This document shows positions 1-26,357 of a stretch of DNA of 28,567 nucleotides, one piece after another. The translations under genes and the position numbers were made by a program. Within the stretch, counting starts at the first letter, position 1. Each line of letters opens with the position of its first letter. This DNA comes from Candidatus Micrarchaeia archaeon (lineage in GTDB: Archaea; Micrarchaeota; Micrarchaeia; Norongarragalinales; CAINOH01): the NCBI GenBank assembly GCA_041652355.1, contig JBAZHM010000001.1:1-28567 (forward strand), given 5' to 3'. A model generated the notes under the pieces. It was not told where the DNA came from, did no database searches, and saw nothing but the letters and a program-made list of their open reading frames with translations.

Positions 1-3000
1 GCGATGCCGGAGAGTAGGATAGCCAGTCGGTGCTTGAGTCCAGCTGGTAGTTTACAAGCAGGTTGGTTGAAAGGTCGTTGTACACGTGGATGCTTGTAGA
101 GGTTTCCGTCTGCGCGCCAAGTGAAAGCGTAAGCTCAGCCGAGTCTTCCTGCACACCCCAAAACTCATCCAGGGGCGATTGCAAGAAAGCGGATTTGACA
201 GTAAACGGAATCGTGATTTTTTGCTTTGAGCTTCCCACGCGGCCCTCTATGATGAGCTTTCCTGTGAAATTTTCAGAAAGCGTGCGGGTTGATTTTGCAA
301 CATCAAGCACTGATTCTGAAATCCATGTATCAAATGTCACTTCCTTTGAAGCCAACGGGTCGAGGCTAAACTCGGATGTTGAAAGCAGCGTGCTGGTGAT
401 TTTTGGCGACTTGTCAAGCACAATTGCAGCAGCAACTTTAACAGCATTGCCAAGCTTGTTTTGGACAGTAAATGAATCAGTGTTGCCTTCCTTTGATTCC
501 ACAAGTATGCTTATGCCAGTCGACGGGTCGACTTCAAGAATTGTTTTTGCATTTGCAGCCAGCGAACCATAGTAGGTTGCGTATCCGGTAGCGGTAATTG
601 CATATTCTACTCTGCCTACCTTTCCGGGGTTGACATTCTCAAGCAGGTATTTTCCTGCTTTTCCTGCGTTTTCCTCCCCGGTGCCATCTAAAGAGTATGT
701 AGCGTCCCCGAACAAGTCGTTCTTTGTGCCTACGATTATGTGCGCATTTGACAGGGGAGTGTCATATGCGTCAGTCACCAAAAACATGAGCTTGTTGTCA
801 ACAAGGGCGGAAAGAACCGAAGGCAACGTGCCCACCTTTAGCTCGTTGTTGGAACTTGCAATGACTCTTCCGGAAACTTCAAGCTCGCTGACCTGTTCAC
901 CCTGGTAATCAACTGCAATTTTGAACGCGAGCACATCAGTTACGCGCAGCGCCTTGACTTTGAACTCTGAGTCGACGTTGCCAGAAGGGATTTCCACAAC
1001 TGCCAGCTGGCCGTCCTTGTCTTCAGTTACTGACGCACTGCCAGATGGAGACGTGCCGGAAAGAATTTTTGCAGCAGTCAGCGATTCTGAAGACAGGCGC
1101 AGCTCATACGGCCCGCCTGTTGAAATGGACTTGACGAATATTGTGAACTCCTCCGGGACTGCAACCTCGAAATTCCTGGCATACTCACCACGCGAAGAAA
1201 CTACGTGCGCCTCAAGGCACAGTTCTTCCGAGCAAATTCCGCCAAAAGAAATTGAGTACTTGGTCTTGTTTACTGCAGCAAGGTTGTCTTGGCCTGCGCG
1301 GACAGAATCATCAGCCGGGTCGCGCAGCGTGCCGTTTGAAGTTGAGTATGCAGTGCGGAACCCAAAAAGCGCAGTCCCGTTCTTTACCTGCCGGGTTGTC
1401 ACTTGCACAGTTGCCTCGCGGGTCCCTGCAAATGACGGCAATGAAAATGACACCCACTTATATTCTATTGAATTTGCAATCGTGTCAAATTCGCCTTCTG
1501 CTGAATCGAAAGTGGAATTTGCGCCAGAATCGGAACCGTATGCAGAACCGCCCGAAGTTGATGCGTCCGAACCTGCGTCAAACCCGGAAATGAACGCGTC
1601 AAGCCCCGACACGTCGCCGGTTTCTCCTCCAAGCCGCACATGAAGCAATGCCTGTGAAAACTTCAAATCCGGAGCATTGAGCAGGAATTTTGCATTGTAA
1701 GCAGTTGAAGGCTCAAGCGAAGACACCCTGTTGCCTTCCAAATCATACATCCCAAGGTAAACTGCGCGCACGTTTTCTGCAACCGAATTGGACAGAAGCT
1801 CGACTAAAACTTCTTTTTCATAATTTGGAACGACCTGCACTTGGGAGGACGAATAGCTTGAGTACCCTTGTGCGTAAACTTTGTAGCGTCCCCAGCCTTC
1901 CAAAAGCTCAACAGTGCAAACGCCAGAGGAAGTTGAGCACGATGCTGAATCAGAAGTGGATGCATCAATCTCTGCGCCATCTATCAGCCTTCGTGAAAAC
2001 CGGTCAATAACCCGGAACTTGAGCGTGCCTTTGGCCGGGACGAGCGTGACGCTTAAAGTAGTGTAATTAACGCCAGCCTCACCGTTTGCAGCCACGTCTT
2101 TCGTGTCAGAAAATCCAGAGCGGCTTTTATATGAAGCCGTTGCGTGGGTCAAACCAAGCGGCACGTCCGAAAACTCAACAAGCCCGTCTGAGCCGGTTGT
2201 GCTTTCAGAAAGGCCAAGAGGGCCGTCTGAGCCAAAAAGGGAAACCGCAGAACCTGAAAGCAGGCCGCCAATCTCATCAACAACCTTGACTTTTACTACT
2301 GCGGAATTGTCCTTGAGCGACCGTTTAAGGACCATGGAACAGTCGGTGCCTTTTTGCACAAACATGCCTGCTGGAATGTAAGAGGGCTTGTATGCAGTAA
2401 CCCAAAGCGACTCGTCTTCGGTTATTGAAAATGACACGTTGCCGTCCGAACCGGTTTTTTGCGGCGTGACATACTTTTTGTTGTCTTTGTATATGTTGAA
2501 CGTAGCCTGTGTAATCTTGTTCCCAGCTTCGTCGATTATACGGCAGGACATCTTTGACTTGCCATCCGCGCCTATTTTTGCAAGCGTGATTTTTGGAGTG
2601 GGAGAAGATGAACTGACAACATAGTCAAGCACGCCATCCTCATAGCCAGAAAGACTGGCTATAAAACGCAACTTTGCGCCTTTGTCAAGCAGGAGCTTTA
2701 CTACGCCTTCGGAAGTGCACATGAATTTACGGACAAGCGTGTTTGCAGGCATTGCATACATTTGGATTTGCGCATCAGCAAGCGACACGTTCCCGGAAGC
2801 TGAAAGCAAAACCTGCAAATTTACTTCAACGCTATTTTCTGCAGCATTGGGAAAAAGAGTCAGAGTAATTGGCTCGGGATTTGCAGCGCCAATGCGTATT
2901 GTGGTCTCATTTGGAGTGTACCCGTCAAGATAAGCAAGAATAGTGTAATTTCTGGACATTGGAAGGGAGAAGGTAACCGAAGTGCCGGTCTTCATGCCAT

Positions 3001-3550
3001 AAGAGTTCTTCGAAGGGTCAGTAATTGAAATCGACGGGTTTCCTGAACCGCTTGCCAGCGCCACTTTGACAATAACCGACGCATTCACATCAACGGGCTT
3101 TGCCTCGAGCTTGATTTCTTGCAAAACCGGAGCCTGACCAACCGTGATGGCTAAAGAGTTGGGCTTGTAATTTGCAGATGATACCGACACGTTGTATTTC
3201 CCAAGCGGGACGTTATAAAACCGGGCAAGCCCCCTCTCATTGGTCGAGTTAAATTTCGAGTTCGCCTCAATCGAGCTGGAGAGTTGCACATTTGCATTGT
3301 CAACCGCAAGGCCATCCGAACCGGTGACAGTGATAGTAACCGTCGCAGTCTGTGCAGGAAGGTTCGTAAAAACAAGAAAGCCGATGCCGCAAAGCACAAC
3401 AATCAAAAGGCCAAGAAAGAACGGCGCTGGCGGGATTCCCTTCTCCTCAAGCGCATCGGACGTGCCGCGGATGGGCAGGCCTTTCTCATCACTCCAGTCC
3501 AGAAACTCCTGCCACTTGGAAGAAAGACCCTCAAGGAAGTCGTCGAACAT
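1..3550 (-). CDS. Giant membrane-anchored surface protein, paralog C (partial, >1183 aa; 3' end outside window); Ig-like/carboxypeptidase-regulatory-like repeats
   Basis: My translation from ATG at 3550 stays open to position 2: MFDDFLEGLSSKWQEFLDWSDEKGLPIRGTSDALEEKGIPPAPFFLGLLIVVLCGIGFLVF (TM) then beta-rich repeats. Its central block (YLGMYD..AYNAKFLLNAP..VRLG..YKWVSF..GTREATV..CSEELCL) aligns by eye with giants A and B. 13 N-x-S/T sequons. Absent from the ORF track, probably because it has no stop in the window. Confidence 0.9.
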   Translation of the reverse strand, partial: MFDDFLEGLSSKWQEFLDWSDEKGLPIRGTSDALEEKGIPPAPFFLGLLIVVLCGIGFLVFTNLPAQTATVTITVTGSDGLAVDNANVQLSSSIEANSKFNSTNERGLARFYNVPLGKYNVSVSSANYKPNSLAITVGQAPVLQEIKLEAKPVDVNASVIVKVALASGSGNPSISITDPSKNSYGMKTGTSVTFSLPMSRNYTILAYLDGYTPNETTIRIGAANPEPITLTLFPNAAENSVEVNLQVLLSASGNVSLADAQIQMYAMPANTLVRKFMCTSEGVVKLLLDKGAKLRFIASLSGYEDGVLDYVVSSSSPTPKITLAKIGADGKSKMSCRIIDEAGNKITQATFNIYKDNKKYVTPQKTGSDGNVSFSITEDESLWVTAYKPSYIPAGMFVQKGTDCSMVLKRSLKDNSAVVKVKVVDEIGGLLSGSAVSLFGSDGPLGLSESTTGSDGLVEFSDVPLGLTHATASYKSRSGFSDTKDVAANGEAGVNYTTLSVTLVPAKGTLKFRVIDRFSRRLIDGAEIDASTSDSASCSTSSGVCTVELLEGWGRYKVYAQGYSSYSSSQVQVVPNYEKEVLVELLSNSVAENVRAVYLGMYDLEGNRVSSLEPSTAYNAKFLLNAPDLKFSQALLHVRLGGETGDVSGLDAFISGFDAGSDASTSGGSAYGSDSGANSTFDSAEGEFDTIANSIEYKWVSFSLPSFAGTREATVQVTTRQVKNGTALFGFRTAYSTSNGTLRDPADDSVRAGQDNLAAVNKTKYSISFGGICSEELCLEAHVVSSRGEYARNFEVAVPEEFTIFVKSISTGGPYELRLSSESLTAAKILSGTSPSGSASVTEDKDGQLAVVEIPSGNVDSEFKVKALRVTDVLAFKIAVDYQGEQVSELEVSGRVIASSNNELKVGTLPSVLSALVDNKLMFLVTDAYDTPLSNAHIIVGTKNDLFGDATYSLDGTGEENAGKAGKYLLENVNPGKVGRVEYAITATGYATYYGSLAANAKTILEVDPSTGISILVESKEGNTDSFTVQNKLGNAVKVAAAIVLDKSPKITSTLLSTSEFSLDPLASKEVTFDTWISESVLDVAKSTRTLSENFTGKLIIEGRVGSSKQKITIPFTVKSAFLQSPLDEFWGVQEDSAELTLSLGAQTETSTSIHVYNDLSTNLLVNYQLDSSTDWLSYSPAS

Positions 3551-3597
3551 AAATATACGAATTAAATAAGAGCGGAGAGGGTATAAAAAGAATTAGA
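3528..3597. repeat. Diverged direct repeat, copy 1 (start codon and promoter of paralog C)
   Basis: 59 of 71 aligned columns are identical to 4969..5039 (offset 1441; 11 mismatches, 1 gap). Confidence 0.9.
3582..3589 (-). promoter_or_regulatory. Putative TATA box (TTTTTATA) of paralog C
   Basis: About 31 nt upstream of the ATG at 3550. Similar spacing is seen for giants A and B. Confidence 0.55.
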
Positions 3598-4810
3598 GTG
3601 GACCGAAGCCGCCGCCAGGCATAATCTTGTTCTTCTTCAGATATGAATCAAGATTATAGTATGCTATTGCACCGTTGCCTTCGCTCTTTGCCACCAGGAC
3701 CGCCTTTGCTTTCGGGTAGGCTTGGCGGAACTGCTTGATGCCGCGAAAATCATCAGCCGAAGGCGTAACCTTGTACTTTACCTCAAACGCAAAAAATGGC
3801 TCGTCAACGATGAAGTCAACTTCCGCCCGGTTCTTGTAGTTCCAGAAAAACCTTGGCTTCAAAGCCTGTGCTACGGCATTCTCGATTATCTTGGACGTTT
3901 CCGACTTTGCAAAACATGCAAGCGAAGGGTAAACTTTCTTGAGCTTTTTTTCACTTGAAAGCCTATTCGTCGAATAATTATACAGCCGCGCAACAAGAAA
4001 ACCGTACACCAAAAAGTCGGAGTACGCTGAAAGCGTCTTCCTGTCGCGGCCGAGGTCGGACGCAAGAGAAGAGTAGTCCAGGACCATGCCGGGGTTCGCG
4101 CAGATTATGGAAAAAAGCCGGTATAGCAAGGCCGGCTCGTCTATTGGGAACACCTGCGGCAAGTCCTCGAAAATCACCTTGCGCGCGATGGTATCGGCAT
4201 AAGCCTTCGCGTCGATGGTATCGTTGAGCGCAGTCTCAGGAAAGGGCTTTCTTATGTATTCAAGGTATAACCTCTCCCTGCCTGAACTTGCAAGGGGCGA
4301 AACTTTTTTACTTTGGAAGTCCAAGAATTCCGAAAAGCTCAATTCGGGGAGAAAGAACTCGTTTATGCGGCCCGCCAAGCCTTCGCCGGACTTTCGCAAG
4401 AGAGCAGAATTTGAACCCGAGAGAACTATGCGTGCCTTGGAAGTATCGTAAAGTTTTTTGACCTTCGCCTGCCAGTCCGGCACGTTCTGAATTTCGTCAA
4501 GGTAAATGCTACTGCCTTTACCAATCGGCTTCTGCGAAACCTTCTCATACTCGGCGATGATCTGCCAGAAATCGTCGACCTGCTCGTCAAACGAGTAGAG
4601 GAAAATGGACTCACGCTTTACGCCCTTTGCTAACTGGCTGTTTATGAGCTGGCGAAGAAGCGTTGATTTTCCCACCCTGCGCAGGCCGTAAACCGCAGTG
4701 ATCAGTCCCGACTTGGCCGATCGCTCAAGCTCCGGAAAGATACTGCGCTGCTTTTCATACGGGTAGGCAAAACCATCCTCCCAATGCCTGTTCTCCCGCT
4801 CAAGCTCCAT
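3593..4810 (-). CDS. ATP-binding protein, AAA_14 ATPase + winged HTH + DUF4143 (COG1373-like), 405 aa
   Basis: Walker A GLRRVGKST, Walker B IYLDEIQ, SGS..LAGR, LSFSEF, HTH-like DYSSLASDLGRDRKTLSAY, C-terminal EVDF..FEVK (PD-(D/E)xK-like). ATG at 4810 is preferred to TTG at 4825 because a TATA box lies 21 nt upstream of it. Confidence 0.9.
   Translation of the reverse strand: MELERENRHWEDGFAYPYEKQRSIFPELERSAKSGLITAVYGLRRVGKSTLLRQLINSQLAKGVKRESIFLYSFDEQVDDFWQIIAEYEKVSQKPIGKGSSIYLDEIQNVPDWQAKVKKLYDTSKARIVLSGSNSALLRKSGEGLAGRINEFFLPELSFSEFLDFQSKKVSPLASSGRERLYLEYIRKPFPETALNDTIDAKAYADTIARKVIFEDLPQVFPIDEPALLYRLFSIICANPGMVLDYSSLASDLGRDRKTLSAYSDFLVYGFLVARLYNYSTNRLSSEKKLKKVYPSLACFAKSETSKIIENAVAQALKPRFFWNYKNRAEVDFIVDEPFFAFEVKYKVTPSADDFRGIKQFRQAYPKAKAVLVAKSEGNGAIAYYNLDSYLKKNKIMPGGGFGPL
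3597..3621 (+). other. Possible degenerate tRNA 3'-end remnant (T-arm, acceptor strand, discriminator)
   Basis: AGTGG-ACCGAAG-CCGCC-GCCAGGC-A has the 5/7/5/7/1 geometry of a tRNA 3' end, but the loop matches TTCGAAT at only 4/7. Confidence 0.2.
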
Positions 4811-4831
4811 AAGGGATTCTTGCAACCGAAC

Positions 4832-4839
4832 TTAATAAA
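4832..4839 (-). promoter_or_regulatory. Putative TATA box (TTTATTAA) of the ATPase gene
   Basis: 21 nt upstream of the ATG at 4810 and preceded by CCAAAG (BRE-like). Spacing fits a leaderless archaeal transcript. Confidence 0.55.
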
Positions 4840-4851
4840 GCTTTGGAAAAT

Positions 4852-4912: not shown

Positions 4913-4936
4913 GAGCGCGTCTGAGCGCCGCAAACG

Positions 4937-4991
4937 GTCAAAGACACGCAGCCTACCTTGCGGTTAGCCCCTCAAAGAAGTCATCGAGCAT
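4937..4991 (-). pseudogene. Relic 5' end of a paralog-C-like gene
   Basis: ATG at 4991 reads MLDDFFEGLTAR* versus MFDDFLEGLSSKW of paralog C. The Trp codon TGG is replaced by TAG (4953-4955). Weak similarity continues about 5 more codons. Confidence 0.8.
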
Positions 4992-5039
4992 AAAAATACG
5001 AATGAAGCAAGCGCGGAGAAGGAAAGAAAAAGAATTAGA
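4969..5039. repeat. Diverged direct repeat, copy 2 (relic start and decayed promoter)
   Basis: Matches 3528..3597 at 59/71. The TTTTTATA box of copy 1 reads TTTTTCTTT here. Confidence 0.9.
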
Positions 5040-5053
5040 ATTAGACTGCGGAA

Positions 5054-5090
5054 GAAAACAAGGAAAAAAGAGGGAAAAAGAAAGGGAATT
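5054..5090 (-). terminator. Putative U-rich archaeal terminator of the 856-aa gene
   Basis: Polypyrimidine run with T5-T6 tracts on the minus strand just after the TAA at 5109. Closely similar to 7943..7975. Confidence 0.5.
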
Positions 5091-5108
5091 GACCAAAAAT
5101 CTTAACGG

Positions 5109-7679
5109 CTATTTTCCGGCCAAGACTTCGCTGGTTGCATCGGTCTGTAACAATTCAATGTTATTTTCGTTATTGACCATATAGACAAGTTTATGCACCT
5201 TTACTTCTTTTCCTCCTCTGGTCGTAATGTACATATCAGGCAACGTGTCGCCCGAACCCAAGCCCATGAGCATTAGAAGATTGCTCATTTTTACGTTGGT
5301 TAAGACGTTCTTTGAATCTGACTCAATCTTGAGGGCATTCTTAAGGTTCTTCAATTCTGAAAGAGCCGCGTTGATGTCCGAAGAAATTTCGTCGTCCGTT
5401 GCGGCTATGGCAAAACTTGAAGGCGTTCCGGACTTAAGGACGTTCGAACAAGCGGTAGTATCACATAACTTAAAGTTCACGCTGTACGACTCAAGTAAAC
5501 TGAAATCAGTTTGCGCTTCAAGATCCATGAAAGCAAATCGCTTTGGAGAGTCAATTGACGTTTCATCAGTATCTAATTTTACGTTCACTTTTGTTGAGTC
5601 CTGATAAAGAATATTGTTGAAAACATACAGACCATACGTTCCGCCTGATTCTGGGGTATACTTTTCAGAAGTATCATCCTCAAACGCCAGCAATTTCTTG
5701 GAATTATCAGCAGACGCATACGCTAGTGCCGCTCCAAAAGTATACTTCTTGGTGTCTACTACATTCGGAACTACCATTATATTGACGCCCTTAAAGCTCA
5801 GACCGGTTGTAATTGACCCGGTTGGCAATCGAGAGTCTAATGAGTTTTCAACAGCAATGACACTATTTATCCCTGACGCAGGATAAGTCACAAAAAAGTA
5901 CCGCACCTCGTTATGCGCAATTTCTGAAAAAGGATTATCGATTTGAACTTTTTCAAATTCGGAGGTCTGCACATTCAAACGATAAAGGCTGACTCCAGTT
6001 AAAATGGGTTTCAAAAGACTATTCGGGCTTGAAGCTTGGTTCTCGATACTAAGCAAAAAGCCCGACACGGGAATAATGGAGGATACAGCTAGGTTGACGG
6101 GGATGATTTGGAAATTTGATTTATCATCAATATTACTTATTGATTTTACTTCCTGCTCAACTTTGTTCTTGGAATCCCAATAATACAAGCCAGAATTTTT
6201 GACTATAAGACGGACAGTCTTGTCTGAAAAAACCGGGTCGGTATTCTTGCATGAAGTCTTGTCATTGCAGATTCCTGTTGACCAGCAGTATTGCGCAACG
6301 CACTTGCCTTCAGCGTTGCAGACCTTGCCACCTATGCAATAATCATCATTCTCTATGCAAGAAGTAGCTGATGACAACACGTCAGACCGCGACTTGCTTG
6401 AACAGAAAGGCAGCCTGTTGGCATTGTCATTGCGCACATCAGAGCCAGTAGTTATGCTGACGCAATACGGGGCGCTTTCGGGGCATCCGTTGTTGCTTGT
6501 TTTTGAAGAGTCGCAGACACAAGTGCTCTCAATGCTGCACACCTGCCCTACAATCGCACAACTTGCATCCGTCTTGCACGGGGTGTTCGCAAAACCGCTC
6601 TCGCCCTCCGGATTGACACACTGCGGCTTAACTATCCCACCGATTTGAGGCTTCAGCGCGCTTACAGGAACGCAAACTTCCTTCCCTTGGCAATAATCGT
6701 TTGCAAGGGCAACCTCGGAAACCTCACAGATTCCGCTGATGCAGTTTCCACTTACACAGGGATTGCCAGTAGCCTCGCTTCGATCAGGGTTAGCCACGCC
6801 ATCAGAACAAGTTTCATAGTTTCTTGGCATACACGTTCCTGACACGAACATATCAGCTTGGTCACACGAAGGCTGGGCATCTTCATTGTCCGAGCATATA
6901 CCCACCATGGTCTTAAAATTGATGACACAATATTTGGCGCCTTTCGGGCAACCGTTTTCGTTTATCTCACCGTCGATGTTACAGGAGCAAACTTTGTAAT
7001 TCAAGTTGCCCAACAATGGTCGGCAAACTTGCCCGCGTCCTACATCCCTAACGCACATTTGGTCCATGGAAAGACCTCCTTCCGAGTAGCATTGCGTTAA
7101 TGCAGTCGCCGATACGGCTTTAGTCCTGCAAACTCCAGCCTCGTCACAAACACCATCTCCACACACTCCGTTTATTGCAAAATCACGTACACAAAATTTC
7201 TGAGTAATGGAAACGCATTCTCCGCTTCCTGACAAAGATGAATATACTTCATTGCCTTTACAATACTTGGAGGGCACCTTGTCGTCCGAACACATGCCAA
7301 CATAAGTTTCTGGATTATACACACAATACTGGTTTTCTGAAGGACAGCCATTGTTAGGGTATTTTGTTCCACCCACATCTATGGAACACTCGCACTTCTT
7401 TTGCTTGGAACACACCCGACCTGCGGGGCAATCGCTGTTAAAAATACATTCTTTATTAGCTGCAAACGGTAAAGGCGCCAAGTCAGTTACCAATTCGGTG
7501 GAAATAGGTGGTTTAACGTCGCCATTCTCAGATGTTAGTGACGTTTGATCATTCGTTTGTTGGGCACCCAAGCTCGGCAACGATTGCGTCTGGCCCCCGT
7601 AATTCGTGGCAAGGAAAGTAGCCACACCTACGATACCAAGAACTGCTAGGACAAGTATTGTTGTAATGCCGCGTGACAC
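5109..7679 (-). CDS. Cys-rich surface/secreted protein (~856 aa), stalk-less relative of giants A/B, with class III (pilin-like) signal-peptide-like N-terminus
   Basis: ORF track 5109..7688. GTG at 7679 is preferred because AGGAG (7689-7693) abuts the TTG but sits 9 nt from the GTG. N-terminus MSRG-ITTILVLAVLGIVGVATFLA; ~400 aa Cys-rich region with three CxC..NGCP modules; C-terminal ~370-aa domain shared with A and B. Confidence 0.85.
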   Translation of the reverse strand: MSRGITTILVLAVLGIVGVATFLATNYGGQTQSLPSLGAQQTNDQTSLTSENGDVKPPISTELVTDLAPLPFAANKECIFNSDCPAGRVCSKQKKCECSIDVGGTKYPNNGCPSENQYCVYNPETYVGMCSDDKVPSKYCKGNEVYSSLSGSGECVSITQKFCVRDFAINGVCGDGVCDEAGVCRTKAVSATALTQCYSEGGLSMDQMCVRDVGRGQVCRPLLGNLNYKVCSCNIDGEINENGCPKGAKYCVINFKTMVGICSDNEDAQPSCDQADMFVSGTCMPRNYETCSDGVANPDRSEATGNPCVSGNCISGICEVSEVALANDYCQGKEVCVPVSALKPQIGGIVKPQCVNPEGESGFANTPCKTDASCAIVGQVCSIESTCVCDSSKTSNNGCPESAPYCVSITTGSDVRNDNANRLPFCSSKSRSDVLSSATSCIENDDYCIGGKVCNAEGKCVAQYCWSTGICNDKTSCKNTDPVFSDKTVRLIVKNSGLYYWDSKNKVEQEVKSISNIDDKSNFQIIPVNLAVSSIIPVSGFLLSIENQASSPNSLLKPILTGVSLYRLNVQTSEFEKVQIDNPFSEIAHNEVRYFFVTYPASGINSVIAVENSLDSRLPTGSITTGLSFKGVNIMVVPNVVDTKKYTFGAALAYASADNSKKLLAFEDDTSEKYTPESGGTYGLYVFNNILYQDSTKVNVKLDTDETSIDSPKRFAFMDLEAQTDFSLLESYSVNFKLCDTTACSNVLKSGTPSSFAIAATDDEISSDINAALSELKNLKNALKIESDSKNVLTNVKMSNLLMLMGLGSGDTLPDMYITTRGGKEVKVHKLVYMVNNENNIELLQTDATSEVLAGK

Positions 7680-7688
7680 GAGAACCAA

Positions 7689-7975: not shown

Positions 7976-7976
7976 A

Positions 7977-10900
7977 TCAACTCAACGATGAACACGATGT
8001 TATAGGACTATCGTTATTCTTGATTAAGGCCTGATTAAACACTCCGTCAATATCGCAACAGCCAGTACGCTCTGTACAACTGGATGATTTGGAAATATAA
8101 TGACAAGCATTGGTAAAATAGAGACCGGTGCAACTACTGCGTATCTCTGCTTGATAACACTCGGTGTACTGCGTGCCGGACTTATAGCAAACCTTGTACC
8201 CGCTAGTGGTGGTCGACGGAGATGAACTCGAAGAAGTCGATGCTGAGCTAGACGCCGCGGCGGATGTTACTGGTTTAAGTTTTTTGCAGATATTGGAGTC
8301 GGGAGTAGTTAACTTACAACCGGCAGCACTACATGGCGTGCACTGTGCAGAGTGAACATACGACGTAGAAAACTTTTCGGGCTCATCGCAGTTTTCAACG
8401 CCACACGTGTTACCTATTGAACAAAGTGCACAAGTTCCTTTGTTATCGCCATCCCAGTTCGCTTCAGAGAAGAAACACTTTAATTCGGGATTTATCAAAG
8501 TGAATGGCGAATAAAAAAAATCCGAAGGAATTGGATTATTTCCTTTCACACATTCTTTTAGCTTGAGATCTGCATCAGCTGATTTATCTCCATCGATTTC
8601 ATTAGGCGTACTATAGGGGCATTCAACTCCAAAGAAGCAACGCTTGCATCCAGGATCTTTGCTACAGTCATCGATTGCTTTTGTTGCAGCATCGCCAGGG
8701 GTGGTCAACGGAACCAATATTCCTTTGTATTCATCATAGACAGAAGCTCCAGCCTTCTGCGAACATTTCGCAGCGTTCCTTATGTCCGCAACCTTTGCTA
8801 TGATGGGAACTTCCCCGTTTTGGTAACGCACAAAACCGGAGGCACGAAGGGAGCAGGTGGAGCTAATAGGCGTCGTATACTTACCGCTATAAATCCAATA
8901 ATTGTTGTTGGAAGGTGAATATAACGAAAGTGACATCTTGATATCTGTATCACCATATGAATCCTGGCGTTTCTTTCCTGGCGCAGTAACAAGGAACTTT
9001 TTATTTTCTTCCGTACCCGGAATTAATCCAGCAGAACTGGTTTCAAGCGAATATTCAAAAGTACCAGTTATGTCTACAAGCGTGTCTTCAAGATATTGAA
9101 TTGCGAATATCTTCAAAGCGTTGTCCGAAGGATCAACCCCGCTTATACGAACCTCGCCAAAAGGCCTTGTCGTTCGTAATCCAAGCTGTTTATCAATCGC
9201 AGATTTAAACTTATCGTCCACGTTCAAATTAGCTTTGAGGTTAGTAACCGGTGTTAAAGCAGTATTAATCATATCCCTAACCTTAACGAGGTCAATATCG
9301 TGTGCAACAAAAGTAGACGGCAAGATGCCAGTAGTACAGGGTCCAGTAGTACAACTGTCTGCAAAGGAAAGCTTAATCGGAGTATAGAATTCACTTGTCG
9401 TTCTTGAAATTGACTTGAAACCATAATCGAAACCAGCTATGGCACCTTCAGGAGATAATTTCGTTAACTCAACCAGAAAATTATTATCAACCTTGAAAGG
9501 ATAATTTGTCTTGTCAAATTCAAGCTGAATATTACTATAGAGATATTGCGAATAAGTCTCCTTCAGCTTTGCCTGCAACGCAGGTGTTGCATCGTACGGG
9601 TCGTAGTTTTCAGGATTGTCCTTGTCGAACGGCACGAACATCTTTTCATAGTTGTTGAACAAGCCTGCTGCGAAAGTATACTTGTCAGTGTCAATGGTCA
9701 CTATTTTTACAGGCTGAACAGCAACTCCATTAAACCCTCCAGTGAAACTGAAAGTAACAGACGGAGTGCATGATTTGCAAGTAGGGTCATAGGATAGGCG
9801 TTGCAAGCAGTTGACCGGAGTAGTCGAATAGGTGTATTTTTCAGATATTGACTCTGCATCAGCACCAGGGTAAGTGATAAGCAAATATACCTCTTTGACT
9901 GCTTTGAAATTAACGTCACCCGCAGGTGAAAAAGCACCGTTTGAATACAGATATGCGGACACAACCGATGTGGTTGACGAAACAAGTTTCATTGATTCAT
10001 CCATAACATCTGCGTCAACCGTAAAGTGCATCAAGAACGCGCCGATTGGCACGATTGATGAAACGCCAATATATGCCGGAGACAATGAGGCAGCAGTACA
10101 TAAAACGTTGTCACAATACAAGCCATCTTTTTTAACCGTAATTTCAACAATGGGTTTTGCGATAAATGCGTCATACGCGTTTTTGGCGATGTTATCCTTG
10201 ACTAACGTTTCATACTTGAGGAAACCACCTGCAGTACTGCCCGTAGTTGTGCCGCCTGTTCCGCTACTATCAGTATCTGTACCGGAGCTGCTTGCAAAGT
10301 TTCCTTTCGACTCTGAAGAGAGAAGTTCCATTGGTTTGCACATTAAACTATCTGTCGCGCTTGCTACGTACTTCTCGCCATACACGGCATTACATTCCCG
10401 CCGTGGCATGATGGACAAGATGAATGGATCGTCTAAATTTCCTGAAACAGTGGAACACACCGGACCGTTACGTGTTATGGAACCAGTTACGCAGAACGGG
10501 GCGTCAACGGGACAGCCATTTGCATCGTGAGGTAGAACGGTCTTGGTATATTTTCCAGTATTCGTATCATACTCATAGCTCACTTTTATATTCGGATTAC
10601 AAGTGCAGGCGGAACTAAAGCCTAAAAGACCAGTTATAACCGTGCATACCTGCCCATCACGATTTCCTCCCGAGACACTGCACAAAGTAGAACCTGCTTG
10701 TTGTACGCAAGGCTTGTTGACTGGACTGCTGCAAACACCATTAGTAAATCCGAGCTTGTTGCATACAAGCTTGATTGACTGCGTAACTGGTTTTTCGTCA
10801 ATTACTGCATCATCAATAGTCATCGTTTCACACTGCGAATCATCCGTACAAGGCGCGCCTAGCTTCTTTGCATCACCTGCAAACGAAACGCTTGACTTTC

Positions 10901-13900
10901 CGCTAAATGAAAGGCTTCCGGTTGCAAGACCGGTTGAGGGCGATGCTGGTGCGACGGAGCCAGATTTCTTCTTCAGGCAAAGTCCAAAGCTGTTGAATGA
11001 AAGACTGTGTAAGGGTTTTCCATTCCATTCACAAAGGTAGTTTTCAAAACAATCTTGGTCTTTTATGCAATATGCGGCACACGCAGCCAGTTTTTCTCCT
11101 TCGTAAAGGCATAGGGGATCGTCAGGAATCGCATTGATATTACAACTGCTCACGATACAGGCTGAACGAGACGGGTTGCATTCAGAACATACGCGTGCAC
11201 CGGTTTTCGAAGAACAGATACCCGTAGTTGAACCATAAGTACCCGATGTTGGAACAACACACGAGAAAGATGAACCAAGAGGCGTGTCTGGAAGATCATA
11301 GTTAGATAAGTCAATTCCAGTCATAGCTATCAAGCATGAACCTCCTGCAGTACTGCAAACGTTCTTGCCGTTTTCTACGTACAAAACACCAATCCCACCA
11401 TCAACTCTACTTCCTGATACTTGAGATTTGGAAGTGGTAGCTGATGAAAGGCATAATGCATCATCTTTGTTCCTCGTGCAAGTCGGGCCGTAAATTCCGG
11501 CTTGATTGCAGTGGTATCCTGCGCCGCAAGTCTGTCCATCGCAAATTTCAAGTGCGGCTGGACTTCCACCTTTAGAACATACGCCATTACTGCAGGTCTT
11601 GCCATTGAGGCATGAAGATGGAACAGTAGTGCATTCGCATTGACTTTTTTGGATATTACAAACCGGTGTTTCTCCAACGCAAACTTCTTTTTCATTACTC
11701 TTTGTGCAAGACACGGGTTTTTGATTTTCTACAGGAGTGACAGGAGCAGTCCATTTTTCACACTTTTCGTCAGCAGTACAGATATCAGGCTGCTTGCAAT
11801 CTATGCAAGGAGAAGTATCAGAAATTGATTTCTTTTCCGAACAAAGACCGTTTCCATCCATCGCATCATCTCCGATGTCAACGCAGTATCGTGCTTCTTC
11901 TGGACAACCATTGGCACCTTCCGGGACTTTAGTGTTGCAAACGCAAGTGCCAGCCAAGTCAGGATTGTTTGTTATGCGAACATTCGCACACTTCAGGGGG
12001 AATTTGCAAGTCTGAGTAGAATACTTAGAGTCACTACTGCAAAGCTCGCCATAACCTACTTCCGTGGAAGCGACGCACTTGGAATTTTTGCATACGCCAG
12101 TCTTGCAGCAGGGCGTGCTTCCTGTTTTGCAGTCATCTCCGATATAACTCGTGCACGATGATTTGTCGCCAGTGTCGTCCGTATCGTCATCATCAGTATC
12201 GTCCGTATCGTCATCATCAGTATCATCTAGTGGCTCGCAGTCAGAATTGCATTTTTTGCCATCAGAACCACACAAGGACACATCACAATTTGTCGGGGTT
12301 GTTGTCGGAACCGCTGTTGGAGTTGCCTTGAGCGCGAACTTGAAACTGATTAGTTTGGTTTCGGTGCTGCACTTTCCTCCATTTTCGGTCAGGCCGCAGC
12401 AGGAGGCATAGAACATATTATAGCCTTCCACAAGAGGGGGAGTGTCGGTGCCCCCATTCAGGGACATGCCCATCTGGTGTACCATCGGGTTCAACCCGAT
12501 TGGGAAGGTGTATACCGAGTTGAGGGTGCATATTGCAGCCTTATCTGTTGTAAGGAGTATGTTGAACGGCTGGTAGTCTATTGGAGCGTCTGTGGCGGGG
12601 TAGTACGAGAGTATCTTTGGTGCAACGGTTTCTATTGTGCCAAAGCAGTTCTTCACCTCAACGGAGACTGTTTTTGTCCGCGGTCCTGCAACTGCGGACA
12701 CTTGAAGCGCCAAGGTCTTGTTTTTTACAGTGGGCACTATTGCAAAATCATTGGAGGCGCTTCGTGCAATCGTGGTTTTGTAGCCCGTTTCAAGGCTGGT
12801 TGTGCCTTCAGTTGTTTTTATGGCAAGCCCCGGCCCGGTCAGAGTCAGGCTGACTTCGCCTTGCACATCAGTTGGGAGGGTGTTTGCAACGGTTATCGTG
12901 CTTTCGCTGTCGCAGTTGCCCTCGCTTGAAGTGTAGATTATCTTTGAGGGGGAGACTGAAAGGAAGTCATTGATTGTTTTTATGTCGCAGCTGGAGTATG
13001 ATATGGACTGTATTGCCCTGCTCTTGTCAAGAGCCTCGGCATTGAACACTATTGAACACTCCTTGTCGTTTGCAGCCGGCTTGACTGTGAACATCCCAAG
13101 CCTACGGTTTGGAAGCACGAACTTGTAGTTGTTTGTAAGGAACGAGTCGTAAACAACTGTTGACGTTGCCTGCTGGAAGGAGCCTGTTCCGGAAACGCCA
13201 TCCCACGGCTCAAGCGAGTATGAGTAATTGACCATCAATGCGCACGAGGAAGTCGCGTACACCGTGAGGTTCAAGTCAAGTGAGTTGCGTATGCGGATTG
13301 TCCTGTAGTCTTCCAGGCCGCAAGCTTCAATGTAATTTGGTGACACTGAAAGGAAGTCCTTTCCAAGGACGGGTACAATCTGTTTTTGAGACGCATAATT
13401 TGAACTTTCCACGAGCACGTCAAAAGTGCCTGCCTCTGTCGGGAGAATTTCATCGAAATTGTAAACCCCGTTGTAGCCTTGATTATCCTCAAACAACGCT
13501 CCCCCGGAAACCGGCTCCGGCGGGTTTTCCGAAAACGGGGTGCCGGTGTTTTCAAGTATTGAAATCGTAGCATCGGTGATTGCCTTGCCAGTCACCGCGT
13601 CTGCAACCTTGATTGACAGGTCGGTAGTCTCGGTTGAGTTGACCTTGTCGGGCTTTACGTAGACTATCTTCATCGTGCCATCGCCTTCTATGGTGACGTA
13701 GCCTTTTGCGGATACAAGCTCAGTGGCGCCGTTGTAGAAAGTTATTGAGAATATGCCTGAGCTGACGGGCATTACTGGAAGGAGATAAAATGAGAGCGCT
13801 GCAGGCTCGCTGAATGGCAAAAGCTGTATGGTTGTGTTTGATAATGACTTGTCAGCAGAGCTGGACACTTTCTTTTCTGCGTCGGTTACTATTGAATAGT

Positions 13901-16595: not shown

Positions 16596-16630
16596 AGGCA
16601 AACACTTAAATTAAAACGGGCAATTGGGAA

Positions 16631-16687: not shown

Positions 16688-19600
16688 CTAGTCGTCCGGC
16701 TGCTTGCACTCCTCGCATTTGACGCCGTTCGCGGAGTTTGCCAGCATATTATCAATGGAGGTTTTTGCCTCAAGGGTGCTCTGCCTCTCGCATTGGTCTG
16801 GATAACTTATGCTCATAGTTCTTTCGGAAAATTTTTTGCCATTGCATGGAAGTGGAGACCCTAGGCAGCAACCATTACATTCGGGGCATAATTCGCCTTG
16901 AAAGGAGTAACCGTCAGCTTTATTGCTGCAACTGATGCATTTTGTGTTTGAAATGTATCTAATTTTTTTTGGTTGACATGGAGATACTTGACAGACTTCA
17001 CCTTCCTCGTAAACAAAACCATAGCGGTATTGACTTTCATAACAACGCGATTCGGGGTACAGCAAAGCATAGGGGGTATAGCCATTTGAAACGGACTTGC
17101 CATTGTAGTTCAGCGCATTGCATCCCTCGGGCTTCAATGAATACAGGGTTTGGGGATACAACCATTTGAATTCTGTGGTTTTACAACCAGCGTCATCGCT
17201 GCAGGTTGTACATTCGCAGTCATACGAATATGTTTCGGGTTTAGACGTTGTGAAATCGTTTTCGCAATTGTTCCCGTTAAAGCAGGCATAGCAGTTCGAA
17301 CCAAGCGTCCCGATAGTTTTTGAACAGGAATATGTTGCTCCAGCTGGATTCTTCGGTGCTCCAAACCAACCCACGCCGCGCTTGCCGTCGGAATAGGTGT
17401 AAATTATCTCTCCGGACTGGGTCAAAAAGCACGCGTCATTGGAGCTACTTCCTGCACACACACCATTGCGGGACATTTTTGTCGGGCAGCAACGCTGTGG
17501 GTTGTCTTCTTGGAGCCCCGATGCGGGGTTTGTGTATATGCTGCCTGAACACGACCCCGCAGCGCCTGAGCCTGAACCGGGTTTGAGCGTGATGAGTTTT
17601 ACCTCTGTTGATGACGGGCCATACACAAGTTTTTTGTCCCTTTCATAAATCGGAACGGGAGTGGGGCATACTGCATCGTCTGCAGCACAGAAGTACGCGG
17701 TGTTGCGCTTTTGACCGGGATAGGCAGATAACTCCTTGGGGCTGGGCACCACATTGGATAAAGCAGTATTGGGGATTATTTTGATATTCGCGCCATTCGG
17801 GTACTCATATGTGCCGGTGATGTCTACAGGCTTGGCATAACTCATCAAAGCAGTTGCCGACCCGGGCTGGTACTGGAACCATAGGATGCGCATTGTCGCG
17901 CCTTCGATTGCGGAGACGAATATGTCGTCAAGTCTGCCTTTTTTTCCGTCCGTGCTGAACAAATTGCCGTCGCCAAGGTGCAATATGCCGAGTGCGTTGA
18001 CGTTTTCGCCGAGTATTGGTTCAACAACATACCTTTTTTCATCCCCATTATCTACAAGTTTCACATTGTTCAAAGTCTTGCCCGCAAGGGAGCCTTTCAG
18101 GTTGACGAGCTCCTGGAGACAGCGGTTGATTTTCTTTTGCATCCAATCATGGGTGATTATCGGGCTGGATTTACCGGCTTCTGTCTGGGTCATCAGGTTG
18201 AAACGGTCAATTTCAACCCACCGCGAAGAGCGGACAGATGAGCCTAGGGAATATACGGGAAAAACACGCATTTTTTTGTATAATACGTCGGGTAATTCTT
18301 TGGAGTTGATTGCCAACGGCTGTGTCTGATATCCGGATGAAACTAAGTGCTCGGGCACTGCAGTAGGATTGCTGCGGGCGTATTCCGCATCGCTGAAACC
18401 GAACTTGGAACCTGAATTCGGGTCGCTGGAAGCCTCACTCATCAAAAGGTTATTGTTGAACACATACAATTCGTATTTTTCATCTGCAATCGGGTTCTCA
18501 TAATACGCATCGTATTTTTTTTCCTTGTTCCACTCCATCGGCAAGAATTGCTTGTAGGTACTGTCAAAAACAGCCATGCCGGCGAAATAACTGTCGGTGT
18601 CTATCACATTGGGCTTAATCTTGAACGGCAAACGCACGTCTCCTTTAGAAAACGAACCCATTATCGCCAGTTCGGTGCTGGATGCGGAAAAATGAATGTT
18701 TCCTTTTACATCCTTCGAAAAGCCCGCTTTCCCACCCCAGGAGTTTTCGTTAAAAAATTGCGGTTGCACGTTCGGATAGGTTATAATCACATCAACACGC
18801 GCGCTTGGAGGGACTAAAACCTTGCCAGCCACGGCAGTGCCATTTATATAAAAAACACCAGGAGTTTTTTCTCCATTAAGCCCAAATAACGCATGGTTAT
18901 CTGCAATTGAACCGGAATTATCAAGAGTCAGGACAAACCCTGCTACAGGCATTATTGAGGAAACATCAAGCACAATGCCTTCAATGATTTGACCAGCAAT
19001 GACGTTACCACTCGCATCTAATGCATACTTGTGGTATTGCTGGTCTGAAAAATCAAAACGCACGCGCTTGTCTTCCGCGGGCTTAAGATCAAAGGAATAA
19101 GGAACGCACACCTGTAAGTCAAGATCGCAGGTCTCACCGGGTTTAGTGCACCCGGCATTGGAGGTGCAAACAGTTGCCTTCATGCATAAGCCATCCGGAT
19201 CGAATATCAAGCCGGAACAGCAGGGCGAACCTGGCGAATACGCTTCGCCTTCAGCCTTGCACGCTGCGGCGACGCATTTTTTCTGGTTCTGGTCGCACGT
19301 ATAAGAACTTTCGCAATACGAATTGTCACGGCAACCCTCAGCACACTTGCCCCCAACACAAATCTTGTTCAAACTCCCACACACAGACTTCTCATTATCC
19401 TGAGTGCAAGTTGCAGGCACACACTTCAAATTAGTTTTGTCACAAACAAAAGAACTCCCGCAATAAGAATCATCACGGCAACCCTCAGCACACTTGCCCC
19501 CAACACAAATCTTGTTCAAACTCCCACACACAGACTTCTCATTATCCTGAGTGCAGGAAATCGGAGTGACTATTGCAGTTGGCTTTACCGTTACAGTCGG

Positions 19601-23965: not shown

Positions 23966-23996
23966 GAAAAATTCTAAGACTCATAACGGCGTTGGC

Positions 23997-24007
23997 TAAT
24001 TAAAAAA
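23997..24007 (-). promoter_or_regulatory. Putative TATA box (TTTTTTAATTA) of giant A
   Basis: About 31 nt upstream of ATG 23965, in the 89-bp divergent gap. Confidence 0.45.
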
Positions 24008-24054
24008 CACGCTTTTGCAAATAACTTCACACAAAATAAGGTGCCAAAACCCAC

Positions 24055-24492
24055 ATGCCAAGTTTCCGGATACATGCAGCTGCGGGTGCCGCAGTTTTCC
24101 TTGCTGCAAACGCATTCCTTTACGGCCAAACGCTAGGAAGCCAATCTGCGGCATTGTTTGCTGCAGCATTTCTTGGCGCAGTTTTTCCTGATGTAGACGA
24201 GCGGCACACGCGGCAATTCAAGCTAATCCTCATCATTGCATCCGCATCGGCTTTCGCAATCGGCTTCCAAGCAAAGCAGGATTTTTTGGAGCCATTTGCA
24301 GCCGGCCTTGCTGCAGCAATTGCAGTAGCGATTTTAGTATTTGCATTGAAGCCAAGGCACCGGGGGATAGTGCATACGTTAACAGCAGCAGCGGCGTTTA
24401 CCGCAGCGATTTATCTTTTGCGCGGAACGGAATGCGCAGCTGCGGGGCTATTGGGCTATTTATCCCATCTTGCACTTGACAAGATCGGGTAA
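24055..24492 (+). CDS. YdjM-family (LexA-binding inner-membrane-associated) putative metal-dependent hydrolase, 145 aa
   Basis: Family motifs H(7), GAVFPDVD, HRGIVHT and GYLSHLALD separated by hydrophobic helices. Confidence 0.88.
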   Translation: MPSFRIHAAAGAAVFLAANAFLYGQTLGSQSAALFAAAFLGAVFPDVDERHTRQFKLILIIASASAFAIGFQAKQDFLEPFAAGLAAAIAVAILVFALKPRHRGIVHTLTAAAAFTAAIYLLRGTECAAAGLLGYLSHLALDKIG

Positions 24493-24529
24493 AGGGCACA
24501 GAATAGTATATGCACAAAGCATCCAAAAA

Positions 24530-25756
24530 CTAGCTGCTTTCGGACCCGTCTTTTAACTTGAAGGCTATGACATAGGTATTTGGCGTGTTTTTGTTAACTC
24601 GAAAGCGCGCGTCATTGTCTATGATGCTAAAATCAAATATCCTAGAAACAGGCGGTTGTCCTTCACGAAGATCTTCAAAATCCTCAATAGCCTTGATTGC
24701 GGCTGTTACGCCGTTGTTGATTATGTTCCCTTTAGTGCAGTGAAGCACAATATCACTTACAGTAAATTTAACCTCAAAGTCAAGGTCAGAAAAATTTTTA
24801 TCTGAAGCCAAATAGGCGCATGCGTCCCTGAATGAATAAACCAGGGTTTTCGGGTCAAACTCGGGCACTGAAACTCTTGAAGAAGGTGCAGTGGATGCTT
24901 TTGCGGCATTCGAATTTCCATACTGCACTATTGAAAACACCCTAAAGGCCGCGTCATTATATCGAAATATTGGATAGCGGATGGGCACTGGGAAAGACGT
25001 TGTGCCAAGCACGCTAGTGCGCACAGAATTCCCATAAGTATCAGTCACTTGAATGCGGGGAAGCGCCTTGAACACATCAGCATCATCAACGTTGACTCCA
25101 AGGTAGAAATTGCCCTCTTCGCATCCTGAAATAAGATTGCCCCCAATCTTGCACTGATAGGGATTTTTTAGTTCCGAACCATAGTTTGCGCAGTCAAAAT
25201 ATGGCATTGGAAGCAGCCGCTTGCACAATGTCCGGCCCGGCTCATCACCGCAGTGAAAATTGTAAACTACATCGCCTCCACCGAATGAGGAAGAAAAAGT
25301 ATCGAACTTTACCGGTGAAAACGTAAGAGTTTCAAAAGTGTTTTCGCTGCGAACTTCACGCAACAGGTCAGAAAGACCGTTTAGAAAAGTTCCTTCCGAA
25401 CTGTAAGCGGAACTTGTTAGCTCTTCGTGAAAAGTATCTGAAATTGAGGTGCATTTGGCGCTTCTTTCCGCACTTGTGAACTCGGAGATATCGTTCAGGT
25501 CCGCCCATGCATAGTTTGCCATGAAGTCTTCGCTGTTTTGCCGCAAGCCATCTGCAAAGAAAGCCAGCAGGTCTGAACGGTAAAGGTCAAGCATGGACAC
25601 AAGACGATTGTGGTACGCATCATCGCCTATTTGGCTTATTGCGCTGGCCTCGTCCTTTGAAAGGTTGACTGCATAAATTATTGCAATCAAAAAAATAAGC
25701 GTGCCAAGAAGCGGCGCGGCTATGAACGCCCTACTATGTTGCTTTTTTTGCGCCAT
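24530..25756 (-). CDS. Hypothetical exported protein (408 aa; 412 aa if started at 25768) with class III signal-peptide-like N-terminus
   Basis: MAQKKQHSRA-FIAAPLLGTLIFLIAIIYAV: basic leader, R-A/F junction, then a hydrophobic helix. The remainder is hydrophilic with several Cys. The start overlaps the end of the archaeosortase gene. Confidence 0.75.
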   Translation of the reverse strand: MAQKKQHSRAFIAAPLLGTLIFLIAIIYAVNLSKDEASAISQIGDDAYHNRLVSMLDLYRSDLLAFFADGLRQNSEDFMANYAWADLNDISEFTSAERSAKCTSISDTFHEELTSSAYSSEGTFLNGLSDLLREVRSENTFETLTFSPVKFDTFSSSFGGGDVVYNFHCGDEPGRTLCKRLLPMPYFDCANYGSELKNPYQCKIGGNLISGCEEGNFYLGVNVDDADVFKALPRIQVTDTYGNSVRTSVLGTTSFPVPIRYPIFRYNDAAFRVFSIVQYGNSNAAKASTAPSSRVSVPEFDPKTLVYSFRDACAYLASDKNFSDLDFEVKFTVSDIVLHCTKGNIINNGVTAAIKAIEDFEDLREGQPPVSRIFDFSIIDNDARFRVNKNTPNTYVIAFKLKDGSESS

Positions 25757-26357
25757 CGGACCGCTCATCCCAATAATACCAAACTGCGTAATACGTTGCC
25801 AAAAACACTACGATACTTGCCCTAAATAAGACATCGTGAAGGATATAGGAAGCAAGAGGGAAGGAATAGGAAAAAAAGTACAATACGATGAAAATGCGGA
25901 TTGCATTGAAAAGCAGGATGAACAACGTGCCAAAAAGCACGCCGTAAACCCTGTTGCGGACAGAGCGGTCCTCGGACGCAATCACAAAACCTGCCAGCAG
26001 TGCAATCTCAATTCCCGCAGCGCAGTACTCGCCAACAGTTGCGCTAAAACCGGAAAGAAAAATCACAGGGTCAGGGAAAGTATATTCCACTACTGCGCTT
26101 TTTCCTGCGGCGTTGAGAATCAATGCAGAGGAGCCAGCTGCAAAGGACTTGAGAAAATACGCGTTGGCAAAAAGCAAGTGCCCTGCCAGTGCCACGAGGC
26201 AGAATAAACCGAGGAATTTTAAAGCTTTGAACCCAGAAGATGACTTACCAATATTTCGGTGGAACAGATGCACGGGCGTTTTTTGGTTCTTAGTGGCAAC
26301 GCAAGGCGTACTTGCGTTTTGCCTGTGCTTTGAAGTGCTCCGGTTCTTTGAGGCCAA
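25734..26357 (-). CDS. Archaeosortase/exosortase family protein (207 aa)
   Basis: Multi-pass membrane protein with Cys in TVGEYCAAG, Arg in FNAIRIF and His in ILHDVLF, in the order and membrane spacing of the family's catalytic residues. The TTG start, with AGGTAA upstream, is uncertain. Confidence 0.8.
   Translation of the reverse strand: MASKNRSTSKHRQNASTPCVATKNQKTPVHLFHRNIGKSSSGFKALKFLGLFCLVALAGHLLFANAYFLKSFAAGSSALILNAAGKSAVVEYTFPDPVIFLSGFSATVGEYCAAGIEIALLAGFVIASEDRSVRNRVYGVLFGTLFILLFNAIRIFIVLYFFSYSFPLASYILHDVLFRASIVVFLATYYAVWYYWDERSDGAKKAT

Follow-up and report, generated by a model that had tools for sequence, protein, structure and literature searches.

A conserved Norongarragalinales locus that combines giant surface proteins with a pilin-like protein and a small archaeosortase whose likely substrate is encoded elsewhere

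Introduction

Little is known of the ways in which DPANN archaea construct their surfaces and attach to other cells, and very few are in cultivation. When a sortase gene adjoins genes for giant surface proteins, does the enzyme display those proteins? We address this question at a locus of Candidatus Micrarchaeia archaeon, in a window of 28,567 nucleotides (nt) that is one whole contig (JBAZHM010000001.1 of assembly GCA_041652355.1; C1 in our numbering) of a 1.2-Mb genome, 78.7% complete. Comparison of leuS places the genome in the Micrarchaeota, and its order is the Norongarragalinales; a homologue of its sortase carries the name Ca. Norongarragalina meridionalis. On one strand of the window, a small exosortase/archaeosortase-family gene is followed by a gene for a pilin-like protein, here called P6, and then by four related surface-protein genes. 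A preliminary description, made from the letters of the window, had read this arrangement as a surface-display system and as an adhesin or host-recognition locus.

By our analysis this is a genuine and conserved locus for which the literature searched has no description; queries there on archaeosortases in DPANN archaea and on pacearchaeosortase returned reviews only, or nothing. The best overall explanation, in which we place moderate confidence, combines giant fibrils that anchor themselves, the pilin-like P6, and a small archaeosortase serving a protein with an LPSWPE-type C-terminal tail that is encoded elsewhere in the genome. A sortase adjoining giant surface proteins does not imply display of them, which corrects a tempting inference. 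The locus also supplies parts that can be tested: order-wide, self-anchored giants with a tag, a pilin-like partner, and a small archaeosortase with a candidate substrate. The Norongarragalinales have been proposed in a 2025 study to be less host-dependent and possibly free-living (PMC12892359), and if the order drifts towards host independence as argued, the locus could show such surface proteins outside obligate symbiosis.

Results and discussion

A family of giant surface proteins

The main features, with the two genes that recur beside them, are as follows (window positions; aa, amino acids; TM, transmembrane).

2-3550, minus strand: giant C (P0001), first 1183 aa, gene cut by the contig end; a 'type 1' tag ...A-L-E-E-K-G-I-P-x-x-P, then a TM helix, then a beta-sandwich stalk
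5109-7688, minus strand: stalk-less 859-aa paralogue (P0003)
7977-16601, minus strand: giant A (P0004), 2874 aa
16377-16511, minus strand: giant A, predicted cytoplasmic N-terminal tag, aa 31-75, with the end E-R-K-G-V-P-S-F-P
12327-16310, minus strand: giant A, beta-sandwich stalk with many sequons, about aa 98-1425
10332-12326, minus strand: giant A, Pro/Thr and poly-Asp linker and Cys-rich modules, about aa 1426-2090
8922-10199, minus strand: giant A, shared head, about aa 2135-2560
7980-8921, minus strand: giant A, Cys-rich tail, C-terminus without a TM helix
16688-23965, minus strand: giant B (P0005), 2425 aa; approximate layout tag aa 36-83, TM helix 84-106, stalk 107-1430, Pro/Thr linker 1431-1470, Cys-rich modules 1471-1624, head 1625-2100 (window 17666-19093), Cys-rich tail 2101-2425
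24055-24492, plus strand: YdjM-family membrane protein (P0009; PF04307, E 2e-13), recurrent in the neighbourhood
24530-25768, minus strand: P6 (P0006), 412 aa, pilin-like, with a class-III-like N-terminus and a disulfide-rich globular domain
25734-26357, minus strand: small enzyme of the exosortase/archaeosortase family (P0007), up to 207 aa, with an uncertain start codon; the gene overlaps the start of P6
26435-28567, plus strand: leuS, 5' part, a divergent conserved neighbour that anchors synteny

The four surface-protein genes together occupy 22.0 kb of one strand, much as first estimated, and their paralogy lies far beyond chance. Giants A and B are 32% identical over 1522 aligned columns (E = 0) and do share the layout originally ascribed to them, which runs from the tag and TM helix through a stalk of about 1330 aa, a linker, Cys-rich modules and the head to a Cys-rich tail. 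Because the window is a whole contig, giant C is truncated; its same-genus orthologues have open frames of about 2900 aa. Giant C had been credited with the stalk, where it matches A at E 8e-8, and it also matches A over the tag and TM helix (E 3e-10) and B at E 3e-21. The 859-aa protein, as first noticed, has only the distal part in common, with an S-R-G sequence, a short N-terminal hydrophobic helix, Cys-rich modules and the shared head (E 5e-10 against the head of A and 4e-6 against that of B). A fifth paralogue, E, lies on another contig (C22; L083, 2843-8116) and has 1757 aa with a stalk of about 650 residues. After its Cys-rich tail, paralogue E carries three further C-terminal Cys-rich repeats of about 60 aa each, with the pattern Y-G-F-G-G ... 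N-P-F-T ... C-S-C-P; A and B have no such repeats.

The stalks match the CarboxypepD_reg family (E 2e-21 in C, 1e-12 in A and 2e-10 in B), and those of orthologues also match Big_1, bMG3, MG4, SdrD_B, Invasin_D3 and SpaA, all of them beta-sandwich families typical of adhesins and macroglobulins. Composition separates the stalks from the distal parts. Cysteines number at most 3 per 100 aa in the stalks and 6-16 in the modules and tails, and N-x-S/T sequons number 16 in the stalk of A and 23 in that of B, with one in each distal half. An STT3/AglB homologue is encoded in the genome, and the stalk is probably N-glycosylated. Pfam and NCBIfam scans of the giants returned no S-layer, protease or nuclease domains, and relatives in public databases are named 'hypothetical' or 'carboxypeptidase-like regulatory domain-containing'. 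The giants belong to no characterised family; the preliminary description had set out this point to be checked, with an S-layer as its example.

At the N-terminus, a short, conserved, acidic and aromatic tag of 70-80 aa has the end [IL]-E-x-[KR]-G-[VI]-P and leads directly into the TM helix. In an alignment of 28 giants, Glu occupies position -4 in 27, Lys or Arg position -2 in 21, and Gly, Ala or Ser position -1, Val, Ile, Leu or Phe position +1 and Pro position +2 in all 28; the outer end of the helix has just a loosely placed Pro. Two kinds of giant are separable by this tag. The first, which directly follows P6 in other families and includes giant C here, reads ...L-E-E-K-G-[VI]-P-x-P-[RKH], and the second, comprising A, B and E, reads A-Y-F-x-V-E-D-K-Y-Y...P-V-Y...P-I-E-x-x-G-[VI]-P-S-F-P. 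In the family of this genome the gene order is sortase, P6, YdjM, second-kind giants and then a C-type giant. Database relatives of the tag are Micrarchaeota proteins only, named hypothetical or carboxypeptidase-regulatory-like. The precomputed Pfam matches of one tag-bearing relative (P0048) include a dockerin domain (PF00404).

The shared head has 19 relatives among 1.84 billion representative proteins, mostly giants of similar size, and on sequence comparison is restricted to close relatives. Its predicted model (pLDDT 74) is mostly beta and forms a chain of beta-sandwich sub-domains, which in searches of the PDB and AFDB gave generic Ig-like, CARDB and cadherin-like sub-domain matches only (TM-score at most 0.21); an Atlas search with the distal stalk of B gave no usable match. 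Divergence rises along the locus and along the proteins. Identity to same-genus orthologues is 90% for leuS, 57% for YdjM, 53% for the sortase and 50% for P6, and within the giants it is 45% in the stalk, 30% in the head and 28% in the tail. Between families the distal halves are unrelated by BLAST, so the anchor and stalk are conserved and the tip is variable. The idea of a common head on interchangeable stalks holds within this genus, where stalks of about 1330, about 650 and 0 residues lie under one head; across the order the relation is reversed, with anchor and stalk kept and distal parts replaced.

Taken together with the domain layout, the giants would be type-II membrane proteins, each anchored by its own N-terminal TM helix with the tag in the cytoplasm. 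They are most likely long adhesive fibrils with fast-diverging tips, and the paralogues would differ in length and tip. The adhesive half of the adhesin or host-recognition reading survives as the best one; host recognition is an assumption, unproven because the order is proposed to be less host-dependent.

Conservation of the locus

Among the 67 other genomes of the order, the sortase subfamily is present in 65, P6 in 61, and giants with this anchor and stalk in 65 (66 of 68 overall), with several to about ten giant matches per genome, of differing length and with unrelated distal parts. A sampled comparison with profiles or the same queries detected each of the three families in 33-34 of 34 genomes of the order, against 0-1 of 116 from other orders of the class. 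Kinship makes these genomes non-independent, and the shared phyletic pattern amounts to roughly one event.

Of the 61 genomes that have both genes, about 40 carry sortase and P6 on one contig, no more than 3.5 kb apart. We inspected 20 loci chosen for this adjacency, from families f1, f2, f8, f10 and f11, and all 20 have the order leuS, sortase, P6, giant, with gaps mostly below 120 nt or with overlapping genes. YdjM is present in 7 of the 20, and several loci have a second giant further on. The sortase, pilin-like and YdjM hydrolase genes are thus syntenic with the giants in related genomes, the point on which the preliminary description had made its proposal depend. The cassette is set among housekeeping genes, with leuS on one side and IMPDH and aIF5B on the other, and no pilus ATPase or platform gene adjoins it in the inspected loci.

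In family f9 the sortase, P6 and giant genes are dispersed and yet all retained, which weakens any obligatory link among them. It is conceivable on this evidence that the sortase and P6 sit beside leuS through inherited order and that the giants mark a hotspot of paralogue expansion, with no function shared among the three. The housekeeping surroundings, the dispersal in f9 without loss of any component, and a phyletic pattern that may reflect a single origin among non-independent kin all fit such mere neighbourhood. Against it, the genes keep the same strand and minimal or overlapping gaps across five families despite protein identities of 25-50%, and in genome G031 P6 and the giant still adjoin though the sortase has relocated. 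We regard this account as quite unlikely.

The sortase and its candidate substrate

The archaeosortase assignment made at the outset is sound. P0007 scores 32.7 bits against TIGR04178, above the cut-off of 23; against PF09721 it scores 16.9 bits, below the cut-off of 25.7, and all 15 homologues have precomputed PF09721 matches. It reaches no cut-off of a named subfamily (ArtA-F, XrtA-X or pacearchaeosortase), with scores of 34.3 bits against a cut-off of 170 for XrtX, 31.5 against 90 for XrtF, 25.5 against 125 for ArtD and 18.3 against 80 for pacearchaeosortase. C112, R154, H174 and R179 are invariant in an alignment of 17 sortase orthologues, and from these residues the enzyme is predicted to be catalytically intact. 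By the positive-inside rule, the conserved Cys, Arg and His would lie on the outer face of the membrane.

The adjoining proteins lack the substrate signal that such an enzyme would be expected to use. We sought a C-terminal sorting signal in A, B, the 859-aa protein, E and P6, and none ends in a TM helix; the same is true of the C-termini of all giants and P6 orthologues in the 20 inspected loci. The canonical sortase mechanism therefore cannot apply to them, and the display of the giants by the sortase, as first proposed, is not upheld. The G-[VI]-P motif of the tag was considered as an alternative sortase signal and rejected, since by predicted topology the motif is cytoplasmic and the conserved residues of the enzyme face outward. 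A complex prediction for the sortase with P6 gave no support (score 0.01), which is not evidence either way.

Outside the window, the genome encodes a canonical-looking candidate substrate of at least 1270 aa (contig C88, L163, 1530-5342, minus strand), in which the sequence S-V-P-S-V-P precedes a C-terminal TM helix and a final R-Y-C-R-D. Orthologues of this protein measure about 1300-1500 aa and match no Pfam domain; 63 of the 68 genomes of the order have one, against 0 of 116 from other orders. Each of the 27 complete orthologue C-termini reads [LF]-x-[LIV]-P-[SA]-[WFV]-P-E-x-x, after which come a TM helix and an Arg-rich tail. Sec-type signal peptides are present in all three of the full-length orthologues that were checked. 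NCBIfam signal models give no match to these tails, and the LP[SA][WFV]PE-TM-basic signal is uncatalogued.

The genome has a second exosortase-family gene (contig C102, L081, 793-1296, plus strand; PF09721, 47 bits), which follows immediately after the gene for a CDP-archaeol synthase (PF01864, 123 bits). Sortases of this type are confined to the order and present in most of it, and none was found in genus g16. Four genomes represent that genus, two of them at 91-92% completeness. Their sole TIGR04178/exosortase-family member detected is the cassette sortase, and the LPSWPE-tailed protein is present with its tail intact, so the cassette sortase is likely the enzyme that acts on it. From this lineage and by analogy, we consider the LPSWPE-tailed protein a likely substrate of the cassette sortase, which would cleave and re-anchor it as ArtA does for PGF-CTERM proteins.

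Other proteins of this genome that end in a TM helix and a basic tail have in common only a loose P-x-[F/L/A] motif; those with this motif before the C-terminal helix may be substrates of the second sortase paralogue. One such candidate is a secreted protein of 159 aa (L083, 9443-9922) with a PEF-CTERM-like tail, in which A-P-D-F-H is followed by a TM helix and then K-K-N-R-R-T.

A competing account makes the cassette a dedicated display system. The sortase, together with P6, would itself process the neighbouring giants, or P6, by recognising some non-canonical signal such as the juxtamembrane G-[VI]-P or the outer end of the N-terminal helix, and so release, cross-link or re-anchor them. Dedicated sortases usually adjoin their targets in exosortase systems, and here the sortase, P6 and giant genes are packed in an operon-like manner in five families, are limited to the same order and evolve alike in their fast rate; the juxtamembrane motif, moreover, is nearly invariant. 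What speaks against dedicated display is that the inspected giants and P6 have no C-terminal motif-TM-basic signal, whereas a canonical tripartite substrate is encoded elsewhere. G-[VI]-P would also lie in the cytoplasm, on an N-in anchor, with the Cys, Arg and His of the sortase turned outward; the outer end of the helix offers little beyond its variably placed Pro, and the genes are dispersed in f9. We consider dedicated display unlikely.

The LPSWPE-tailed protein also bears on whether the giants themselves form the envelope. As an outer canopy or S-layer-like coat, they would be anchored by the stalk and form a lattice with the head, and stalked envelope proteins such as tetrabrachion and SlaB are known in Archaea. 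This structural role would suit the near-universal presence of giants in the order (66 of 68 genomes), several per genome, in a genome where no PF05123 S-layer gene was found. The last point says little, the model being insensitive, with matches in 8 of 151 genomes of the class (none among the giants or elsewhere in this genome). The number of giants per genome, their variable length and their unrelated distal parts fit diversified adhesins better, and the head is confined to close relatives. The LPSWPE-tailed protein, which is single-copy, is the better envelope candidate and may be the main envelope protein. A structural role for the giants is quite improbable.

The pilin-like protein

The pilin-like N-terminus first noticed in P6 is supported by conservation and by structure prediction. 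The N-terminal sequence [KR][AG]-F-[IV]-[AS]-A-P-L-[IL]-G-T is kept in an alignment of 13 orthologues and has a class-III-like form, a short basic leader ending in [KR][GA] and then a hydrophobic helix. In the AlphaFold2 (AF2) model (pLDDT 78), a predicted N-terminal helix of 68 residues (18-85) stands on a globular domain. Self-matches aside, the model comes closest in fold to an AFDB cluster that bears the name 'Type II secretion system protein K' (E 3e-9, TM-scores 0.52/0.58), a single, automatically named predicted structure with a match over residues 19-407. No Pfam or NCBIfam pilin or GspK family matches P6 at E 0.1 or better, a P6 profile finds nothing among PDB sequences, and comparison of the model with the PDB (Foldseek), VIA-align and Atlas gives long-helix or weak generic matches only. 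We therefore describe P6 as pilin-like, which is supported, and only tentatively as GspK-like.

Under the preferred explanation, P6 would probably be co-transcribed with the sortase and matured by one of the genome's prepilin peptidases, and our best guess at its role is that of a pilin-type adaptor or cap. Peptidase_A24, T2SSE and T2SSF genes are present in the genome, none adjoining the cassette. The type IV filament inventory is large for a genome of 1.2 Mb, with about seven T2SSE, eight T2SSF domain and two to three prepilin peptidase matches.

These features raise the question of whether the giants are themselves modular pilins, with [KR]-G | [VI]-P as a class III signal behind a leader of 70-80 aa. 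A prepilin peptidase would then remove the tag, and a GspK-like P6 would assemble, prime or cap the giants on a type IV filament machine. The occupancy of positions -2, -1 and +1 given above is what such a signal would show, and the site lies on the side of the membrane at which prepilin peptidases act, the cytoplasmic one. Short class-III-like leaders of the ordinary kind are found in P6 and the 859-aa protein, and the genome's two to three Peptidase_A24, about seven T2SSE and several T2SSF genes would supply the machinery. The invariant Pro at +2 and, in type-1 giants, the basic residue at +5 are, on the other hand, both atypical for class III signals. No amphipathic helix continues beyond the membrane, a beta-sandwich domain following directly after the TM helix, and the inspected loci have no adjoining gene for a pilus ATPase or platform. 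To our knowledge, a leader of 70-80 aa lies well beyond described class III signals. The modular-pilin reading is improbable.

Weighing the preferred explanation

Several points weigh against the explanation we prefer, that of self-anchored giants beside a sortase with another substrate. The LPSWPE-protein gene and the sortase gene are never adjacent, lying 15 kb to more than 200 kb apart, and their proposed pairing as substrate and enzyme draws on one genus that lacks the second paralogue, plus analogy. The close, operon-like arrangement of the sortase, P6 and giant genes points to a functional relation more direct than the one proposed here, and in f9 the cassette appears dispensable as a unit. 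The adhesin role of the giants is read from architecture, and the GspK-like fold of P6 from one automatically named predicted structure.

Paralogy, domain layout, synteny, phyletic pattern, catalytic residues and the C-terminal signal are shown here; adhesion, glycosylation, the pairing of enzyme with substrate and any physical link among the three parts are inferred. On a broader reading, the parts would belong to one undescribed surface-assembly pathway, in which a dedicated mini-archaeosortase anchors the LPSWPE-CTERM envelope protein and P6, with giants whose tag serves for targeting, is inserted or assembled through that envelope as attachment fibrils. We consider this broader pathway doubtful. 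If true, it would bring together a sorting signal and an N-terminal tag that are both new, along with a partnership of sortase and pilin for which the literature searched has no description.

Comparison with known systems

The sortase belongs to the same superfamily as ArtA, which acts on PGF-CTERM proteins such as the Haloferax volcanii S-layer glycoprotein, and as the enzymes of PEP-CTERM systems, as judged by the TIGR04178 signature and the invariant Cys, Arg and His. The likeness extends to the presence, in the same genome, of a gene for a large Sec-secreted protein whose C-terminus joins a short motif containing Pro to a TM helix and a basic tail. Unlike those systems, the enzyme here consists of a core of about 160-200 aa only and falls below the named subfamily cut-offs, the signal is LP[SA][WFV]PE, and it is absent from P6 and the giants, the products of the conserved neighbouring genes. 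In XrtF, whose neighbour is a membrane protein, and in ArtE, both without a known target, a short core likewise stands beside an unrelated membrane-anchored protein. The partner here, in contrast, is a pilin-like protein of 400-700 aa followed by giants, and the scores lie far below those subfamily cut-offs. P6 resembles the minor pilins and pseudopilins of type IV pili and type II secretion systems, such as GspK, and modular pilins in its class-III-like leader, long N-terminal helix and disulfide-bonded globular domain, but differs from them in having no curated family match, no specific match to a solved structure and no adjoining motor or platform gene.

Among DPANN surface proteins, the SPEARE proteins of Nanohaloarchaeota are likewise very long, mostly extracellular and membrane-anchored, with adhesion-type domains and several paralogues per genome; they carry serine-protease and restriction-endonuclease domains and are mostly anchored near the C-terminus (PMC6642349). 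The giants have neither the protease nor the endonuclease domain, are N-terminally anchored, and have a cytoplasmic tag of merely 70-80 aa. SLP_Mh of Ca. Micrarchaeum harzensis, a glycosylated Micrarchaeota surface protein with an N-terminal hydrophobic segment, is a PF05123 protein of 101 kDa with almost no sulfur-containing residues (doi 10.1101/2021.04.28.441871), whereas the giants are 2-3 times larger, Cys-rich in their distal parts and without a PF05123 match.

Neighbouring features

Two further features lie between giant C and the 859-aa paralogue.

3593-4825, minus strand: AAA_14/DUF4143 ATPase (P0002; PF13173, E 3e-28; PF13635, E 5e-15)
4940-5060, minus strand: decayed second copy of the giant C promoter and start region, with 83% column identity to 3500-3620

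Metagenome runs from groundwater and landfill contain near-identical DNA, and the source sample may be among them; no RNA run was among those listed by the search. Direct alignment shows the ATPase gene flanked by two copies of the promoter and start region of giant C, the upstream one having a reading frame that stops after 12 codons. Lying between duplicated start regions, the gene looks like an insertion that duplicated its target, and it is unrelated to the surface module and outside it.

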